The notes under the pieces were generated by a model. The model worked only from the letters and a program-made list of their open reading frames with translations. It ran no database searches and was not told where the DNA came from. From a virus (taxonomy: Duplodnaviria > Heunggongvirae > Uroviricota > Caudoviricetes): DNA of 40,634 bases. Location of the stretch: the IMG/VR virus record IMGVR_UViG_2585427727_000015, one strand, 5' to 3'. Shown here piece by piece: positions 2,389 through 17,623 of this stretch (the stretch's first letter is position 1; each line of letters begins with the position of its first letter). A program made the position numbers and the translations under genes.

Positions 2389-2497
2389 TTAATCCAACCC
2401 TCTCTGAAAATTAATGCCAGCAGATAAAGCCATGCTGAAACAGAGGCCAGGAATAAGTACCATCCTGACCATTTGCTCCAGTGCCTTAGCAGCACAC

Positions 2498-2746
2498 TCA
2501 TGCAGCGTTGCTCACAGGACGATATACACGTTGCTGAACAGGAGGCTTTTTACCCTGGAACTCTGCCGGGCTTGCTGCCTGACGTTCATCAAGCCAACGC
2601 TCAACTTCGTCACGGTTCCATGCGCAGCGTTTGTCAGTGATATACCAGCGTTTAGGAAATTCACCTGCGCGCTCCATACGGTCGATAGTGCTCCATGACA
2701 GTGGCACCACCGCCAGGAGTTCCTTCTTACCTAATGCACCTTTCAT
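2498..2746 (-). CDS. AlpA/Xis-like excisionase or transcriptional regulator (small HTH protein)
   Basis: 82-aa ORF with LLAVVPLSWSTIDRMERAGEFPKRWYI...AWNRDEVERWL pattern resembling AlpA/excisionase family; position between recombination genes and int. Confidence 0.65.
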   Translation of the reverse strand: MKGALGKKELLAVVPLSWSTIDRMERAGEFPKRWYITDKRCAWNRDEVERWLDERQAASPAEFQGKKPPVQQRVYRPVSNAA

Positions 2747-2795: not shown

Positions 2796-3677
2796 TTACA
2801 TAGATGTTTCGTTTAATTCTTCCCGACGAACGCTGTAAACGTCGGTGGCTTTTGCCAGCAGTTCGTCATCATCTGAAAGTTTTTGTGCAATGTATTTGTA
2901 AGCCTTATCCAGTTCGGAGACAGTGCTGTAATTCATCGCTGCGCTGGTAAAGGCCATCAGCATTTCTTCTGGATCACGGCTATCCGCTTTACGCGTTTGC
3001 TCATCATGCTTTTTCACTGGTTTAGCGTTGATCAGACTGTTCATTCCCGCAGCAGTAGTCGTTTGCGGAGTAATGTCTCGCTCAACGCGCGGTGCCGTTT
3101 CCTGTAATTCGTCAGGGGTGTAAACACCGAGAAGCACATCAGGAGCGTGCAGGCGAGCCCATCGTTTCGTGCAAAGATAGGCAAGCTGCTGGCGCGGATC
3201 CTGTTCCCACAATGGAGAGTTACGCACTCCGGCTTGCGCCATACTGATGGTAAGCTCACGGGATTCTGCTTCTCCTTTAAGAACTGCTGACACAGTTACC
3301 GTCAGATTCGGTGATTTATCTGTTTTGCCGTTAACATTCGACCAGTCACCGCTCCAGCGATAATTCAGGCGTGTCGCTAGCAGGCTGGAAGAGGATACGA
3401 CCGCATTTACCAACTGTGCTTCGTAGCCTAACGTTCCGTTTACCACATGCGTTTTCTGCGCCACGGCGAAAGGGTTCATTCCCCACTGTGCCGCCTGCAT
3501 GGTCACCGCCAGACAATCGGCAGGTTTGCCTTCAAGATGTTTCGGTACAGTCGCTTTGCTTTGTGACATCAACTCCGCGAAACGCACCAGTTGATTCATG
3601 CCCTCCGGGCTGAAGATTGCCGCAGCAGTACCTACAGTTGCGCCTGGTTGTGATGTGATTGCGATATCATTGCTCAT
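2796..3677 (-). CDS. Single-strand annealing recombinase, RecT/Bet (Red-beta) family
   Basis: 293-aa ORF; C-terminal LCTKRWARLHAPDVLLGVYTPDELQE resembles the conserved Bet/RecT region; immediately downstream of and overlapping (ATGA) an exonuclease gene. Confidence 0.7.
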   Translation of the reverse strand: MSNDIAITSQPGATVGTAAAIFSPEGMNQLVRFAELMSQSKATVPKHLEGKPADCLAVTMQAAQWGMNPFAVAQKTHVVNGTLGYEAQLVNAVVSSSSLLATRLNYRWSGDWSNVNGKTDKSPNLTVTVSAVLKGEAESRELTISMAQAGVRNSPLWEQDPRQQLAYLCTKRWARLHAPDVLLGVYTPDELQETAPRVERDITPQTTTAAGMNSLINAKPVKKHDEQTRKADSRDPEEMLMAFTSAAMNYSTVSELDKAYKYIAQKLSDDDELLAKATDVYSVRREELNETSM

Positions 3678-5099: not shown

Positions 5100-5684
5100 T
5101 TATTGTTTGTTTTTTTCGTTCTGGTTGATGACAAATTCAATGTAACTTTCGATCTTTGCTTTCTCGGTTTCGGGTAACAATGCGTAGCGCGAGCGGTCAT
5201 AGTTGATGGTCGCAGGGTCGTGCGGGTGAATCAGTAATTCATAGCCGTGACGCCCGAATGCGGATGCAACATTCTCCAGGGTGGAAATGGAAACGCTGAC
5301 CTCATTGTTTAACAGGCGGCTGATTGTCACCTGGGCGACGCCGGATGCGCGGTGAAGTTTTCCCTGTGTTGAAAGGTCGCGGCTTTCGCTCATCCAGCGT
5401 TCCAGGTTGTGAGCCGCCAGCTGACCAATGTCGCTTGGGCCGACAGGCTGAAAACCTTCCTGAGAAAGCGAGCGATCGATATCAAGCCAGTTACGTGGTT
5501 TATTGGCGGCAGCTTCAATTTTTCGCGCAACCTGGTCGCCGATAACCTTCTTGCCAAGAGCCCAGCGGTTTACCAGATTTGCCTGAGTTCCAAGTTTTTC
5601 TGCCATCCGCGTCTGAACACCATTGAATTCACGGTCGATCAAGTCGTTGAGATTTTGCCTGCGGACGTCCTGGATACTTTTCAT
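5100..5684 (-). CDS. Prophage repressor (CI-like; XRE-type HTH, possibly two HTH-like segments; no S24 peptidase domain evident)
   Basis: 194-aa ORF divergent from Cro-like gene; HTH-like segment TRMAEKLGTQANLVNRWALGKK and a second ASGVAQVTISRLLNNEVSVSISTLENVASAFG; flanked on both sides by operator palindromes. Confidence 0.7.
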   Translation of the reverse strand: MKSIQDVRRQNLNDLIDREFNGVQTRMAEKLGTQANLVNRWALGKKVIGDQVARKIEAAANKPRNWLDIDRSLSQEGFQPVGPSDIGQLAAHNLERWMSESRDLSTQGKLHRASGVAQVTISRLLNNEVSVSISTLENVASAFGRHGYELLIHPHDPATINYDRSRYALLPETEKAKIESYIEFVINQNEKNKQ

Positions 5685-12071: not shown

Positions 12072-12668
12072 ATGATGCCTGCTGAACCTAAAACCTATAA
12101 ACGCAAATCAACGCAATTTAAGCCACTAACAGCAATGCAGGAGGCTTATTGCCAGTCATACATCAAAACGCCTGAAAACCAGACTCAGGCAGCGATTAAC
12201 GCAGGATTCTCCCCAAATACAGCGGCAGTTAAAGCCAGTGTCATGATGCGCGATGAACGCATTCAAAAACGGATTGCCGAGTTGATGGAGGAGCGCAACA
12301 AACGAATGCGCGTCAGTGCTGATTACGTTCTCATGCGCCTGGTGGAGATCGACCAGATGGACGTGATCGACATCCTCAACGACGATGGGAGCCTTAAACC
12401 AATCCGTGAGTGGCCGAAAATCTGGCGCACTACGCTTAGTGGCTTTGATCTGTCATCGACCATCATGAACATGAACGAGGATTCGATAGAGACAATCCTC
12501 AAAAAAATTAAATGGCCTGACAAGGTGAAGAACCTTGAGCTGATTGGTAAGCATGTTGATGTCAACGCGTTCAAAGAACGTCTGGATGTTAATGTGAATG
12601 TGACAATTGCTGATCGCATAGCAGCAGCCAGGAAGCGACTCAAAGAACGTCAGGATGGTAATCAGTGA
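12072..12668 (+). CDS. terS: Terminase small subunit
   Basis: FKPLTAMQEAYCQSY...AAINAGFSPNTAAVKASVMMRDERIQKRIAE matches the N-terminal pattern of Terminase_2-type small subunits; ATG 12072 with GGTGG SD; directly precedes terL. Confidence 0.75.
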   Translation: MMPAEPKTYKRKSTQFKPLTAMQEAYCQSYIKTPENQTQAAINAGFSPNTAAVKASVMMRDERIQKRIAELMEERNKRMRVSADYVLMRLVEIDQMDVIDILNDDGSLKPIREWPKIWRTTLSGFDLSSTIMNMNEDSIETILKKIKWPDKVKNLELIGKHVDVNAFKERLDVNVNVTIADRIAAARKRLKERQDGNQ

Positions 12669-14140
12669 CAGATACAGCGTTATCTCCTGAAGAGCAGTTG
12701 ATCGAGGATATTGCAGGGTTCACTCACGATCCGCTTGGCTATGCCCTCTATGCGTTCCCGTGGGGGGAAGAGGGGACTGAACTGGCACATGCTACCGGCC
12801 CACGTCAGTGGCAGGCTGATGCGTTCCGAGAGATACGTGATCACCTGCAGAATCCAGAGACGCGCTATCAGCCGCTTATGTTGGCACGCGCTTCTGGTCA
12901 CGGTATTGGTAAATCCGCATTCATCTCAATGCTGATCAACTGGGGCATGTCCACTTGCGAGGATTGTAAGGTCGTGGTGACCGCCAACACCGACAACCAG
13001 CTACGAACGAAGACCTGGCCGGAAATTATCAAGTGGTCGAACCTTGCTATCACGAAAGACTGGTTTACCTGTACCGCTACCGCGATGTACAGCAATGACC
13101 CAGGGCACGACAAGCGGTGGCGGGCTGACGCAATACCCTGGTCTGAGCACAACACTGAGGCATTCGCCGGACTACACAACGAGCGCAAACGCATCATCGT
13201 GGTATTCGATGAAGCGTCGAACATTGCCGATCTGGTGTGGGAGGTAGCAGAGGGTGCGCTGACGGACGAAGACACCGAAATCATCTGGGTGGCGTTCGGG
13301 AACCCGACGCGTAACACCGGGCGTTTCCGTGAATGTTTCCGCAAGTACAAACACCGCTGGAAGTGTGCGCAGATTGACAGCCGGACGGTGGAAGGCACTA
13401 ACAAACAGCAGTTGCAGAAATGGGTTGATGACTACGGGGAAGACAGCGACTTCGTTAAAATCCGTGTGCGCGGCATATTCCCTGATGCATCTGAATTGCA
13501 GTTTATCCCTACCGGTCTTACTGACGAGGCAATGAAACGGGTGGTAACCGCTGCGCAGGTTGCACATGCTCCGGTGATAATCGGCGTTGACCCGGCGTAC
13601 TCCGGCGTTGATGACGCTGTGATATACCTGCGGCAGGGGCTGCACAGTAAGGTGCTATGGACTGGCAACAAGACCACTGACGATCTGATTATGGCGAAGC
13701 GTATCGCTGACTTTGAAGACCAGTACCAGGCTGACGCAGTGTTCATCGACTTCGGTTACGGAACTGGTCTGAAGTCAATCGGTGACGGCTGGGGTCGTAC
13801 ATGGCAACTTGTTCCGTTCGGTGGCGCGTCTACTGACCCGCAGATGCTCAATAAGCGCGGGGAGATGTTCAACTCATGCAAGACGTGGCTGAGGCTGGGC
13901 GGCATGCTTGATGACCAGGAAACAGCGGACGACCTGTCGGCGGCAGAGTACAAAGTTCGAGTGGACGGTAAAATCGTTATCGAACCGAAGGAAGATATCA
14001 AGGAGCGGCTTGGGCGTTCTCCTGGTAAAGGCGATGCGCTACTGCTGACGTTTGCTTTCCCGGTCTCGAAACGCATAAATATACCAGGACAGCAAAGCCA
14101 GCAGGGAAGGGCCATAACGGATTATGACCCATTTGAATGA
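12665..14140 (+). CDS. terL: Terminase large subunit (ATPase/nuclease)
   Basis: 491-aa ORF, GTG start overlapping terS stop; Walker A-like GHGIGKS and downstream nuclease-like region. Confidence 0.9.
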   Translation: MTDTALSPEEQLIEDIAGFTHDPLGYALYAFPWGEEGTELAHATGPRQWQADAFREIRDHLQNPETRYQPLMLARASGHGIGKSAFISMLINWGMSTCEDCKVVVTANTDNQLRTKTWPEIIKWSNLAITKDWFTCTATAMYSNDPGHDKRWRADAIPWSEHNTEAFAGLHNERKRIIVVFDEASNIADLVWEVAEGALTDEDTEIIWVAFGNPTRNTGRFRECFRKYKHRWKCAQIDSRTVEGTNKQQLQKWVDDYGEDSDFVKIRVRGIFPDASELQFIPTGLTDEAMKRVVTAAQVAHAPVIIGVDPAYSGVDDAVIYLRQGLHSKVLWTGNKTTDDLIMAKRIADFEDQYQADAVFIDFGYGTGLKSIGDGWGRTWQLVPFGGASTDPQMLNKRGEMFNSCKTWLRLGGMLDDQETADDLSAAEYKVRVDGKIVIEPKEDIKERLGRSPGKGDALLLTFAFPVSKRINIPGQQSQQGRAITDYDPFE

Positions 14141-14143
14141 TTT

Positions 14144-14545
14144 TTACTTTTGTGATTTTGATTTTCTTTGATTGGCGGGATTTAAACCGCCATTTATATT
14201 TGCTAGTGGATTATTCAATAATGTACTGATTTCTGGGTTGTTAATTTTAGCAATGCCTAAATTTTTTGCAGACTCGTTAATCATTTGTACTATCTTTGGA
14301 TCAGCAAGTCTATTTGCAATTGAGTTGTTTGTTGTCAAATGAATACTTTCTTTATAAGACTTATATTCGTCTTTTAATTGTTTGTGAGCTTTTTCTAGAT
14401 TTTCTAGTTTAGATGTTGTTTCATCAATAACCTTAGATAATTCTAAAATACGAGCTTGTGCTGCGCGCAGTTCTATCTCCCTCTCTTTCAATTCAGATGT
14501 GAGTTGTCCCATTCTGTCTTTTGAAAGAATTATTTCCTCTTTCAT
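14144..14545 (-). CDS. AT-rich moron ORF, coiled-coil protein (133 aa), possibly C-terminal part of a frameshifted longer protein
   Basis: Low-GC ORF with heptad-like charged repeats; 5' end overlaps upstream ORF across an A8/T8 tract (14556-14563). Confidence 0.5.
   Translation of the reverse strand: MKEEIILSKDRMGQLTSELKEREIELRAAQARILELSKVIDETTSKLENLEKAHKQLKDEYKSYKESIHLTTNNSIANRLADPKIVQMINESAKNLGIAKINNPEISTLLNNPLANINGGLNPANQRKSKSQK
14173..14201 (+). terminator. Plus-strand intrinsic terminator ending the terS-terL transcript (embedded in 3' end of minus-strand moron ORF)
   Basis: TGGCGG-GATTTAAA-CCGCCA followed by TTTATATTT. Confidence 0.5.
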
Positions 14546-14993
14546 ATCTTGAATGTTTTTTTTCAGCGCCTGTTTTTACTTTTTCGTAAGTAATGTCTTT
14601 TTTAGCCAGCAATCTCTGTAGCCGTGTTTCACGTTGTATTTTTCTTGCCTTCCGGTGATTTTCGATTGAGTCATTATTATCAAGAGGCTTTGCTTGCCAT
14701 ACGTTAATGATATTGTTTACCCATGGTAATAGGCAGCAGATAGTAATTACAGATAAGCATGGATAAAACATAACAGTTTTCCATGTACTGTTATCTGAGA
14801 TATATGAAATTTTATCTATTATATTTGATTTGCTAAAAAATAGATAAAGAAGTGATTTCCAGTTGAAGGCGCACCAGGACATAACAAAAGCACCAAGCAC
14901 AGGGTTTTTAGCTCGATGCACGGCAGTGTTGGCAGTAGATAAAAACAGCTCTTTGAACGATTCGAACATACTAATTACCTTAAAGTTTTTCAT
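14493..14993 (-). CDS. AT-rich moron ORF, predicted membrane protein (about 166 aa, two hydrophobic segments), possibly N-terminal part of a frameshifted longer protein
   Basis: ATG 14993 (MKNFKV...); hydrophobic stretches NPVLGAFVMSWCAFNWKSLLYLFF and TVMFYPCLSVITICCLLPWVNNII; operator-like ATACC-N5-GGTAA at 14998-15012 overlaps RBS. Confidence 0.5.
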   Translation of the reverse strand: MKNFKVISMFESFKELFLSTANTAVHRAKNPVLGAFVMSWCAFNWKSLLYLFFSKSNIIDKISYISDNSTWKTVMFYPCLSVITICCLLPWVNNIINVWQAKPLDNNDSIENHRKARKIQRETRLQRLLAKKDITYEKVKTGAEKKHSRYERGNNSFKRQNGTTHI

Positions 14994-15028
14994 GATTATA
15001 CCTTTAAGGTAATTTGTGGTCATCAGGC

Positions 15029-15054
15029 AAAAAAAATGCCCGGACGAACCGGGC
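15029..15054 (-). terminator. Rho-independent terminator downstream of tRNA-Arg
   Basis: Minus strand GCCCGG-TTCGT-CCGGGC followed by T8. Confidence 0.7.
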
Positions 15055-15218
15055 GAACTGGAAGCAATGAGTTCTGCCTTCCGTGGCTGTACGGGTTTAC
15101 AGCATGAAGTCATCGCAATGGCGTCCTGCTGTAAAAAAGGACGGTGATAGTCCTTCAAGGGAAACCATCACCGCCAAGCACCTGGAACTTCTGGCATCAC
15201 GGTCCTTAGGCGTGATTC

Positions 15219-15295
15219 TGGCGTGGCATGCAGGATTCGAACCTGCGACCAACCGCTTAGAAGGCGGTTGCTCTGTCCAACTGAGCTAATGCCAC
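15219..15295 (-). tRNA. tRNA-Arg (anticodon UCU, reads AGA), argU-like
   Basis: 77-nt cloverleaf: acceptor GTGGCAT/ATGCCAC, D-arm GCTC...GAGC, anticodon stem ACCGC/GCGGT with loop CTTCTAA, T-arm GCAGG-TTCGAAT-CCTGC, 3' GCCA. Confidence 0.9.
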
Positions 15296-15617
15296 AACGC
15301 TGAGAGCACTTAGCCTGTTAAGGCGCCACACTTTGTCGCGGCTCCATAAATGCTCTCATCGTTGTACCCTCGTCTCTTCCGAGGCGTCACACCGAATCGC
15401 CGGGATGGTGAATCCACGTGCGCGGAATAAAACCGCTCGACTTGCACATTCCGGCTACCTGGTTCGTTTGCCCGAGCAAGGGAGGGTGCCCCTTAAACGT
15501 ATCCAGACCGCTATCGGCGCATGTGCCATACGCCGTACTGCTCAAAATAAAAGCTCACTCCACCTGTTCAATTTAACGACAAGCCAGTCAGGTTAATAAC
15601 CGGAATGAACTCTCTGC

Positions 15618-15632
15618 TTACCTGAAAGGTAA
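15618..15632. promoter_or_regulatory. Operator-like palindrome TTACCTGAAAGGTAA upstream of head-gene operon
   Basis: Perfect copy; the 17-nt string TTACCTGAAAGGTAATA is identical at 34573; extended -10-like TGGTAATAAT lies about 60 bp downstream. Confidence 0.5.
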
Positions 15633-15722
15633 TAATTCGTGCGTTAAATGTCAACCATCTACGATAAATAAATCACATGTGGTTAAATTGGTAATAATTT
15701 AATTGCGTACGGAGTCATTGAT

Positions 15723-15929
15723 ATGTGCATGGGTAGCTCACCATCAGTGCCTGCAACACCAGAAGTTCAGGCAGCACCACAGGAGCAGGATGCCGCCGTT
15801 GTTGATGCCCGCGACGAAGAAACACGTCGCCGTCGCGCTGCTGCTGGTCGTAGTTCTACGCTGCTTACCGGTTCTCAGGGCGACACATCAACCGCTAATA
15901 CCAGCGGTAAAACGCTACTTGGTCAGTAA
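15723..15929 (+). CDS. Small hypothetical protein (68 aa) preceding portal
   Basis: ATG with GGAG SD; its translation-initiation region CGGAGTCATTGATATG is duplicated (15/16) at the portal start 15931-15946. Confidence 0.5.
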   Translation: MCMGSSPSVPATPEVQAAPQEQDAAVVDARDEETRRRRAAAGRSSTLLTGSQGDTSTANTSGKTLLGQ

Positions 15930-15943
15930 CCGGAGTCATTGAA

Positions 15944-16255
15944 ATGGCGGAAACAACTAAAGAGCGATTGAACAAACAGTTCGCACAACTTGAAAGCGAG
16001 CGTCAGTCGTTCGAGCCGCACTGGCGCGAGTTGAGTGATTACATCAACCCGCGTGGTTCCCGCTTTCTGACTTCTGAGGTCAACCGTAACGATCGACGCA
16101 ATACACGCATTATTGATTCGACCGGGACTATGGCGGCGCGCACTCTCGCCAGCGGCATGATGTCAGGCATCACAAGCCCCGCGCGTCCGTGGTTTCGCCT
16201 GGCTACGCCAGATCCTGAAATGATGGATTATGGCCCTGTTAAGTTGTGGCTTTAG
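15944..16255 (+). CDS. Portal (head-tail connector) protein, N-terminal segment ending at in-frame TAG 16253-16255
   Basis: Same reading frame as 16271-17623 with a single stop between; GTMAARTLASGMMSGITSPARPWFRLATPD resembles (from memory) the T7 gp8 N-terminal region. Confidence 0.6.
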   Translation: MAETTKERLNKQFAQLESERQSFEPHWRELSDYINPRGSRFLTSEVNRNDRRNTRIIDSTGTMAARTLASGMMSGITSPARPWFRLATPDPEMMDYGPVKLWL

Positions 16256-16270
16256 GCGGGGCAGAACCGC

Positions 16271-17623
16271 ATGAACGATATGTTCAATAAGTCGAATCTC
16301 TATCAGTCGCTGCCGCAGTTATACGGAAGCCTCGGCACATACAGCACTGGCGCAATGGCGGTGCTGGAGGATGACGAGGACATCATTCGTACAATGCCAT
16401 TCCCGATAGGAAGTTACTACCTGGCTAACTCACCTCGTGGCAGTGTGGACACCTGTTTTCGCAAGTTCTCTATGACTGTTCGTCAGCTTGTTCAGGAGTT
16501 CGGACTAAATAACGTCAGCGAATCCGTAAAAAGCATGTGGGAAAGCGGCACCTACGAGAAGTGGATTGAAGTGATGCATTCGGTTTACCCGAACATTGAC
16601 CGCGATACATCGAAGCTGGATAGCAAGAACAAGCCATTCAAATCGGTTTATTACGAGGTTGGTGGCGATAACGACAAGTTGTTGCGTGAGTCCGGATTCG
16701 ATGAGTTTCCAATTATGGCTCCGCGCTGGGAAGTTAACGGCGAAGATGTTTATGGATCATCATGCCCGGGTATGCTGGCGCTTGGACCTGTTAAGGCATT
16801 GCAGCTTCTCCAGAAGCGCAAGTCGCAGTTGATTGATAAAGCCACCAATCCGCCGATGGTTGCTCCGACTTCCCTCAAGAATCAGCGCGCCTCCCTTCTT
16901 CCTGGCGACATCACGTATATCGATCAGATTACTGGTCAGGATGGCTTCAGGCCTGCTTATCTGGTTAACCCCAGTACAGCAGATTTGGTGGCAGACATTC
17001 AGGACACTCGTCAAATCATTAACAGCGCCTACTTTGTCGATCTGTTCATGATGTTGCAGAACATCAATACCCGCTCGATGCCTGTTGAAGCGGTGATCGA
17101 AATGAAAGAAGAAAAACTTCTGATGTTGGGGCCGGTTCTGGAGCGTCTGAACGACGAATGTCTTAATCCTCTCATTGACCGCGCTTTCTCGATGATGGTG
17201 CGTAAAAACATGCTGCCGCCACCGCCTGACGCGATGGAAGGCATGCCCCTGAAGGTCGAATACATTTCCGTCATGGCTCAGGCGCAGAAGTCTATCGGCC
17301 TGTCCAGTCTGGCGTCCACGGTTAACTTCATTGGTCAACTTGCGCAAGCGAAACCAGAAGCTCTCGACAAACTCAACGTTGATCAGGCGATCGATGCATT
17401 CGCTGATATGTCCGGAGTGTCTCCAACCGTCATTGTTCCGCAGGAACAGGTTGAGCAGGCTCGCCAGCAACGGGCACAGCAGCAACAGCAGCAACAAATG
17501 ATGGCGATGGGGATGGCGGCGGCACAGGGTGCCAAGACGCTAAGCGAAGCTAAAACTTCGGATCCGAGTGTTTTGTCAGCTATGGCGAATGCAGTTAGTG
17601 GTCAGGGTGGGCAATCACAATGA
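16271..17623 (+). CDS. Portal (head-tail connector) protein, main body
   Basis: 450-aa ORF; Gln/Ala/Met-rich C-terminal tail (QQRAQQQQQQQMMAMGMAAAQGA) typical of T7-type portals; position between terminase and scaffold/capsid. Confidence 0.8.
   Translation: MNDMFNKSNLYQSLPQLYGSLGTYSTGAMAVLEDDEDIIRTMPFPIGSYYLANSPRGSVDTCFRKFSMTVRQLVQEFGLNNVSESVKSMWESGTYEKWIEVMHSVYPNIDRDTSKLDSKNKPFKSVYYEVGGDNDKLLRESGFDEFPIMAPRWEVNGEDVYGSSCPGMLALGPVKALQLLQKRKSQLIDKATNPPMVAPTSLKNQRASLLPGDITYIDQITGQDGFRPAYLVNPSTADLVADIQDTRQIINSAYFVDLFMMLQNINTRSMPVEAVIEMKEEKLLMLGPVLERLNDECLNPLIDRAFSMMVRKNMLPPPPDAMEGMPLKVEYISVMAQAQKSIGLSSLASTVNFIGQLAQAKPEALDKLNVDQAIDAFADMSGVSPTVIVPQEQVEQARQQRAQQQQQQQMMAMGMAAAQGAKTLSEAKTSDPSVLSAMANAVSGQGGQSQ

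Follow-up and report, generated by a model that had tools for sequence, protein, structure and literature searches.

What is the long noncoding stretch beside a phage-borne transfer RNA (tRNA) gene, and what might it do? The question is raised by positions 15029-15722 of the window, i.e., the whole stretch of 40,634 nucleotides (nt) of viral DNA analysed here (IMG/VR record IMGVR_UViG_2585427727_000015), where the original prediction had placed an argU-like tRNA-Arg(UCU) gene with a GC-rich "tail" of 320 bp, read as a captured host tRNA flank or as an unrecognised noncoding RNA. The sequence comparisons identify 15296-15541 on the minus strand as encoding a member of a large family of structured phage RNAs, ~190-250 nt in size, with a multi-helix fold that includes an H-type pseudoknot; the family is apparently undescribed. 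The original observation was partly confirmed and its interpretation partly supported, the noncoding RNA being the part that gained strong support, from invariant sequence blocks, from covariation and from a score of 148.7 bits (E 9.8e-45) with covariance model R1, which matched the window in a single copy and at full length (15349-15541).

A structured noncoding RNA upstream of the tRNA

In the orientation of the tRNA gene the flanking stretch lies 5' of the tRNA, and it is therefore a leader and not the tail that had been described. Its G+C content (0.58 for 15296-15617) and its folding, which was better than that of shuffled sequence (z-scores of -4.15 and -2.96 on the minus and plus strands, respectively), agreed with the GC-rich, hairpin-bearing character noted earlier. 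The predicted extent of 320 bp had to be shortened: the boundary of the conserved element was located near 15541, and the remainder up to 15722 (15542-15722) is a divergent regulatory region common to the window and epsilon15.

A BLAST search of phage records with 14100-15760 as the query matched 15030-15760 at 97-98.5% identity to phiV10, TL-2011b, the O157 typing phages 9 and 10, and phiv142-3, and 15296-15536 at 70-83% identity to unrelated phages. The alignment of 11 phages found by BLAST contained long invariant blocks (AUGGCACAU, AGCGGUC, GGUAGCCGGAAUGUGCAAG, CACCA, GGCG and GGAAGAG), separated by variable stems with compensatory changes.

For pair counting, 111 unique copies were reduced to 47 representatives less than 93% identical, 40 of which were aligned (alignment A2); the hand-built model covered helices P1, P2 and P6 and both stems of the pseudoknot (S1 and S2); the alignment of helices P3 and P4 was unreliable. 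Paired bases occupied 95% of the cells; column shuffles gave 86%, and sliding the 3' partners gave 28-55%. Both sides had changed in 13 of the 27 pairs, and the observed covariation score was reached by none of 500 shuffles. RNAalifold, run on an independent set of 37 copies aligned with the covariance model, recovered the same helices and refined P2, in which CGGUCYG pairs with CRG(GUA)GCCG; a rare G-to-A variant in GGUAACC preserves a U-A pair. Several pairs were mostly G-U or U-G (e.g., in 38/40 and 40/40 sequences at two pairs), and these would be A-C mismatches on the opposite strand, indicating that the sense strand is the tRNA strand.

The claim that 15296-15617 holds no convincing open reading frame (ORF) was borne out, since no credible ORF was found there in the window, and the flank proved noncoding in the relatives as well: the homologues shared no conserved reading frame, no frame was open in more than 15 of the 40 copies, and their lengths were evenly spread modulo 3. 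A protein-coding gene over the RNA was rejected on the absence of a conserved frame, on lengths that are not multiples of three and on the compensatory substitutions in the stems. GenBank records of mEp460, Ayreon, mEp390, Tyrion, phiSTEC1575-Stx2k and JL22 place "hypothetical protein" coding sequences over the RNA; since the stems covary and no frame is conserved, these annotations are probably spurious.

Predicted fold

The core of the RNA (15349-15541, minus strand), as described by model R1, comprises helices P1, P2, P3 and P4, the H-type pseudoknot and helix P6. Helix P1 is a hairpin of nine pairs at 15515-15535 (minus strand; CGGCGUAUG, loop GCA, CAUGCGCCG), with 97% of its cells paired and one pair that switches from G-C to A-U in 17 of the 40 sequences. 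The most conserved segment is a near-invariant 19-mer at 15441-15459 (minus strand; GGUAGCCGGAAUGUGCAAG), unchanged across the 11 phages found by BLAST and represented by only three single-base variants among the copies retrieved with an independent pattern. Helix P2 arises from pairing of the 5' part of the 19-mer with AGCGGUCUGG (15503-15512), and the compensatory variants UCUGG/CCAGG, UCCGG/CCGGG and UCCAC/GUGGG were observed for it. The AUGUGC of the 19-mer is complementary to GCACAU in the loop of helix P1, a candidate tertiary pairing of which both sides are invariant.

The pseudoknot occupies 15390-15416 (minus strand), its stem S1 joining 15413-15416 with 15402-15405 and its stem S2 joining CACC (15407-15410) with GGUG (15390-15393). 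Changes on both sides were found in three of the four S1 pairs, and S2 changes from CACC/GGUG to AACC/GGUU in four sequences; the outermost S1 pair of the window is U-C, owing to one substitution relative to the phiV10-like copies. Helix P6 (15368-15384, minus strand) is a hairpin of CCUCG and CGAGG around the conserved loop GAAGAGA, with compensatory changes in four of its five pairs (CCUCG/CGAGG, CCUGG/CCAGG and GCCGG/CCGGC).

The apical loop of helix P3 (15463-15502, minus strand; CACCCUCCCUU in the window) keeps a pyrimidine motif, UCCYUU, which resembles the anti-Shine-Dalgarno 3' end of 16S rRNA and might pair with ribosome-binding sites.

Beyond P6, most family members have a long closing helix, P7 (CAACGaUGAGAGCAUU ... 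AGUGCUCUCAGCGUUG), in which the inserts measure 34-170 nt and the compensatory variants include GAGCGCACU/AGUGCGCUC and AAGAGCAUU/AGUGCUCUU. In the window it spans 15296-15364 (minus strand; CAACGaUGAGAGCAUUUA ... UAAGUGCUCUCAGCGUU), encloses a 34-nt insert, and its final pair abuts nucleotide +1 of the tRNA. The 3' strand of helix P7 was considered as a boxA and rejected because it covaries with its partner strand.

At many loci without a tRNA (e.g., L008, ~2385-2365, minus strand, and Tyrion) the conserved junction between GUUG and UGGUGAAU is followed by a hairpin, likewise conserved, GCGCA-GGCUGA-UGCGC or alternatively CCGCG-AAAUGG-CGCGG, in the place that tRNA-Arg holds in the window. A short ORF starting MRRLMR after helix P7 is not conserved and reflects the first of these hairpins. 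The helix P7 inserts of Stx2a_1447 (L008, ~2400-2500, minus strand) and SPN1S (L007) contain two T-arm-like hairpins, CUGG-UUCAAUU-CCAG and GUCCG-UUCGAUU-CGGAC, as well as a hairpin resembling an anticodon arm, UCCCA-UUCAGAU-UGGGA. ARAGORN and Rfam called a tRNA in none of these insert hairpins, which may represent a decayed tRNA or a tRNA-like module.

Distribution of the RNA family

The RNA was matched in 86 phage records, including lambdoid phages (cdtI, mEp460, 2H10, Ayreon, Stx2c and Stx2a phages, and mEp390), P1-like phages (P1, P7, D6, SJ46 and RCS47), other members of Uetakevirus (Tyrion, PAT1 and SPN1S), the Klebsiella phage SopranoGao and one Stenotrophomonas phage. The plasmids with a match numbered 590; the majority were non-mobilizable, and those listed measured ~78-145 kb, in keeping with P1-like phage-plasmids. 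A search with the invariant 19-mer returned at least 120 IMG/VR contigs and, in species-representative genomes, 24 loci, nearly all of them from Enterobacterales. About one in five complete Escherichia coli genomes (1078/5426) matched 15160-15722, and plasmids accounted for 276 of the places matched. No copy was found in lambda in the phage-record search, and epsilon15 retains only a deleted remnant (44 bits with R1), in a region for which its record lists sites for RNase III, IHF and repressor.

An adjacent tRNA is found in a minority of cases, and the fact that most copies have no neighbouring tRNA indicates that the stretch is not a tRNA flank. The idea of a captured host flank did not survive these searches, in which the matches came only from phages, prophages and P1-like plasmids. 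An argU flank captured from the host, an attachment site (as a remnant or a secondary site) and a gene for a small protein are accordingly scarcely credible, even if the argU-like tRNA and the annotated coding sequences mentioned above speak for them; to the distribution and the coding evidence is added a complete tRNA, 14 kb from the integrase. The element acts as an RNA of the minus strand, and not as a protein or as host-derived DNA.

As regards novelty, a scan of 13900-16100 against Rfam 15 (E up to 1) called the tRNA and nothing else, and a lambdoid copy with its flanks gave no match (E up to 5); Rfam 15 also has no model for the put RNAs discussed below, so that absence from it is not proof of novelty. 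The literature covered, on put and HK639, on P1 ban and on structured or anti-defence phage RNAs (with King 2011, PMC3187212, and the P1 genome paper, PMC523184, outside this coverage), held no description of the family, and a 16-mer of the RNA was absent from the literature texts searched.

Genomic context

The surroundings of the RNA were surveyed at 129 non-redundant IMG/VR loci. At about 62 of them a co-oriented gene for a Peptidase_S24 (cI-type) repressor ends 130-150 nt upstream of the RNA, and about 37 are Uetakevirus-like. In cdtI, cI is followed by an intrinsic terminator and then by a near-consensus promoter (TTGACA-16-CATAAT) over a palindromic operator, with the RNA ~47 nt further on; mEp390 has the same arrangement, with the promoter TTGACA-18-TACATT. 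This order indicates that the lambdoid RNA is the 5' leader of the early-left (PL) transcript. In phages P1 and P7 the RNA lies between tRNA-Ile(CAU), 18 nt upstream, and ban, inside the C1-controlled ban operon, for which phage P7 carries the C1 operators.

The genes that follow vary (phrog_204, DUF2303 and an HD-domain protein; a 151-aa (amino acid) protein and a ParB-like protein; or ban), as would suit an element able to do without a dedicated expression platform. Neither an N-like nor any other constant protein was found downstream with Pfam and PHROGs in the carriers examined, nor is the RNA followed by a conserved ORF. In the inspected examples, from three phage types, the RNA appears to sit in a repressor-controlled early unit, co-oriented with the following genes; repressor control is annotated for P1 and P7, and elsewhere we infer it from promoter and operator matches.

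In some prophages the RNA core is immediately followed by a perfect rrn-type boxA (GCUCUUUAACAA), at 3355-3367 in L091 and also in L035 and L048, which suggests antitermination dependent on Nus factors on the same leader. Together with the position just after a PL-like promoter, these boxA motifs recall a nut-type site for an unrecognised N-like protein, in which P6 would be the boxB: the P6 loop is fixed on a covarying 5-bp stem, and its first five bases, GAAGA, are those of the boxB loop of lambda nutL. Such a site is highly improbable here. No arginine-rich N-like ORF was found downstream in the carriers, which leaves the reading weak; the other ~170 nt of conserved structure would be superfluous, and the element is also present in P1 and in podoviruses.

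In phage P7 (L002, ~2900-2975, minus strand) helix P7 is replaced by a hairpin (UUUCUGGUGAUG ... UAUCGUUAGGAG) that pairs with the Shine-Dalgarno sequence of ban, a feature of the leader in phages P1 and P7 that hints at translational control of ban. This neighbouring hairpin, the position in the 5' untranslated region of ban, the pseudoknot and the invariant junctions between variable stems would suit control or processing of early transcripts by a leader that senses a ligand, as riboswitches do, or by a ribozyme that cleaves itself. We regard this explanation as improbable, given that the family has no common terminator/antiterminator or platform sequestering a ribosome-binding site, that in the window the RNA precedes an untranslated tRNA, and that no riboswitch or ribozyme of Rfam 15 was matched even at E up to 1-5.

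The RNA-tRNA unit of the window

The unit is preceded by a palindromic operator of the type ATTACC-N5-GGTAAT (15617-15633), located between the RNA unit and the gp3/portal operon. The palindrome occurs 14 times in the window (4965, 5027, 5739, 6124, 8046, 8108, 12039, 12057, 14997, 15617, 24891, 33176, 34191 and 34572), vs about one occurrence expected by chance; copies flank the helix-turn-helix repressor gene (5100-5684), and others overlap the promoter of the neighbouring moron and the region upstream of the RNA. The epsilon15 record annotates the site homologous to 15617-15633 as a repressor-binding site. The palindrome is probably the operator of the phage repressor, whose regulon would then be unusually dispersed.

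A candidate promoter for the unit lies at 15626-15654 (minus strand), consisting of TTGACA (15654-15649), a 17-nt spacer and TACCTT (15631-15626), the latter (the -10 hexamer) sitting within the operator; a weaker alternative lies at 15571-15544 (minus strand; TTGAAC at 15571-15566, a 16-nt spacer and TATTTT at 15549-15544). The terminator attributed to the tRNA was found on the minus strand at 15029-15054 (hairpin 15054-15038, GCCCGG-TTCGT-CCGGGC, followed by the T-run ATTTTTTTT), and it is not alone: closer to the tRNA, 15131-15175 (minus strand) contains a second and stronger terminator-like hairpin (15175-15140), with a 14-pair stem followed by CTTTTTT.

A self-contained noncoding unit of this kind, with a tRNA and two terminators, is what would be expected of a stable trans-acting noncoding RNA, cut from the early transcript by tRNA-processing enzymes (by RNase P at the tRNA 5' end in the window, and by 3' processing of tRNA-Ile in phage P1) and binding or titrating a host factor, be it a protein, the ribosome or an RNA, early in lytic growth. 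Helix P7 ending exactly at tRNA +1, tRNA-Ile(CAU) 18 nt upstream in phages P1 and P7, and the T-arm-like hairpins of Stx2a_1447 and SPN1S all point in this direction; unpaired segments as strongly conserved as these are a usual mark of RNAs that assemble into ribonucleoproteins, and a precedent exists in PreS/LPR1, a small RNA from the early-left operon of lambda (bioRxiv 10.1101/2024.10.31.621285). On the other side, most copies have neither an adjacent tRNA nor a terminator of their own, the RNA of lambdoids and P1 lies within an mRNA leader directly upstream of coding genes, no target complementary to the 19-mer was found in the window, and no partner protein co-occurs. On balance this is a close rival of the reading favoured below, although a doubtful one.

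Proposed function

The reading that we tentatively favour is that of an early-leader RNA acting on its own transcription complex in the manner of put. The RNA and the tRNA of the window would be made as one early transcript, stopping at the two terminators, and a cut by RNase P at the tRNA 5' end would free the RNA, with its 3' end held in helix P7. The invariant segments would bind a conserved host machine, preferably the RNA polymerase that made the RNA, as with HK022 put, and the outcome would be sustained transcription of a long untranslated early region (by processive anti-pausing, antitermination or anti-Rho action), while the tRNA would simply supply a rare codon, AGA. The position as an early leader, the lack of N, the lack of a fixed partner or expression platform, and the invariant segments support this put-like action.

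Several observations weigh against it. In phages P1 and P7 the RNA is located mid-operon, far from the operon promoter, and scans of lambdoid loci revealed no intrinsic terminator 3' of the RNA. The two strong intrinsic terminators directly 3' of the window tRNA would be odd if the polymerase were made terminator-resistant. Both candidate promoters of the window scored below the threshold of the promoter scan, their consensus matches having been read by eye, and the canonical boxA right after the RNA in some loci suggests a separate Nus-dependent system. Finally, model R1 had no match in the HK639 and HK022 loci (E up to 10), and a model restricted to helix P1 (R2) gave only 6.8 bits (E ~5) on HK022 putL and missed HK639 putL.

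It is also possible, if rather unlikely in our view, that the family represents a new class of large phage RNA with a mechanism unrelated to put or nut, ribonucleoprotein-forming or catalytic. Many temperate enterobacterial phages (P1, Stx-converting lambdoids and phiV10/epsilon15-like podoviruses) would make it within minutes of the start of lytic growth, and its target would be a conserved host machine. That machine would possibly be linked to tRNA metabolism, because of the repeated association with tRNAs and tRNA-like hairpins.

If the family is indeed undescribed, a large pseudoknotted RNA to which no function has been assigned is present in P1, which is among the best-studied phages, in many Shiga-toxin phages and in about a fifth of complete E. 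coli genomes, and its sequence is conserved to a degree like that of universal RNAs. Lying near the start of immunity-controlled early transcription, it is a candidate second, larger type of RNA-only antiterminator, early host-takeover RNA or anti-defence RNA. The covariance model could serve to annotate it.

The tRNA-Arg gene

ARAGORN called a single tRNA in the window, a tRNA-Arg at 15219-15295 (minus strand) with the anticodon tct at position 35, and the Rfam tRNA model RF00005 scored it at 73.3 bits (E 1.4e-15), well above its gathering score of 29, establishing the predicted minus-strand tRNA-Arg(UCU). Host E. coli tRNA-Arg genes are ~86% identical to it over nt 7-77. Copies at least 95% identical were found in only ~505 E. 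coli records, and the one context checked was a prophage; with a best match of ~86% in every other genome, these few copies indicate an argU-like tRNA of a phage lineage. The proposal of an attachment site was not upheld: the tRNA is full length, the integrase gene lies at 1-1251, and the tRNA has the same placement in related phages, including SPN1S and ST512-KPC3phi13.3.

AGA accounts for 73 of the 9958 codons in the window ORFs (7.3 per 1000), concentrated outside the head genes and with a maximum of 10 in one gene of 211 codons. As the E. coli average in standard tables is ~2 per 1000, supply of this rare codon is a reasonable function for the tRNA, and that suggestion of the original prediction remains plausible. 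The gene was already annotated in the O157 typing phages 9 and 10, phiv142-3, SPC32H and E. coli prophages; the tRNA-Arg itself is ordinary, and only its direct fusion to helix P7 of the upstream RNA is notable.

The phage of the window

By sequence similarity the window is a prophage of the phiV10/epsilon15 type (Uetakevirus, epsilon15-like podoviruses), with terL at 12665-14140 and the portal gene at 15944-17623 (plus strand). The chromosome of E. coli AST20 carries a prophage 99.8% identical to the window. Codon 16253-16255 of the portal gene is an in-frame amber TAG in the window and GAG in the AST20 prophage, dividing the 559-aa portal protein into ORFs of 103 and 450 aa; the prophage may be defective, or this may be an amber mutant or a sequencing error. 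The AT-rich moron at 14144-14995 (minus strand), which has its own promoter-like site (15023-14995), is one 259-aa coding sequence in AST20 (phrog_4780, function unknown), and in the window one added T within a T-run near 14556 causes a frameshift that leaves two overlapping ORFs.

Comparison with known systems

The tRNA finds its counterparts among the phage-borne argU-like tRNA-Arg(UCU) genes, of which it is an ordinary example. As noncoding RNAs of early transcripts, some of them linked to tRNAs and freed by tRNA- or mRNA-processing enzymes, the species 1 and 2 RNAs of T4, DicF of Qin and PreS would be comparable to the RNA described here: the T4 species are small stable RNAs co-transcribed with phage tRNA genes, and DicF is a small RNA processed from the early-left operon. 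They have no sequence relation to the present RNA, which is much larger and more structured than Hfq-type small RNAs.

With the lambda nut site the element shares the position just after PL, a covarying stem with a fixed loop (P6) and, in few loci, a boxA. It is ten times larger and also occurs outside lambdoids, and no N-like protein was found; a boxB-like P6 loop and a boxA limited to few loci did not justify assigning it to the lambda-type nut sites.

The put elements of HK022 (putL and putR) and HK639 (putL-like) are RNA-only antiterminators of lambdoid phages without N (PMC9378689; annotation of the HK639 record), and putL of HK022, which has no N, is located just downstream of PL (PMC9378689). 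Like them, the RNA described here is a cis-encoded structured RNA near PL in N-less lambdoids, with no dedicated protein partner; in cdtI and mEp390 it lies ~45 nt after a PL-like promoter by cI, with no N-like gene found downstream. Helix P1 (ACGGCG...CAUGCGUCG) is superficially similar to stem I of put. The action of put on terminators is in cis and requires the zinc-binding domain of the beta-prime subunit of RNA polymerase. The architecture is different, however, put having ~70 nt (126 nt as annotated in HK639) and two stem-loops, as compared with ~190-250 nt, at least six helices and a pseudoknot in the present RNA, which is in addition found in P1-like phages and podoviruses and beside tRNAs. 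A BLAST search of all the loci with HK639 putL recovered HK022 only, no second copy that could correspond to putR was found in the window or in the lambdoid loci, and, with the matches to R1 and R2 likewise not significant, membership in the put family was rejected. As a functional analogue, the put RNA of HK022 and HK639 is nevertheless the closest to the RNA described here.

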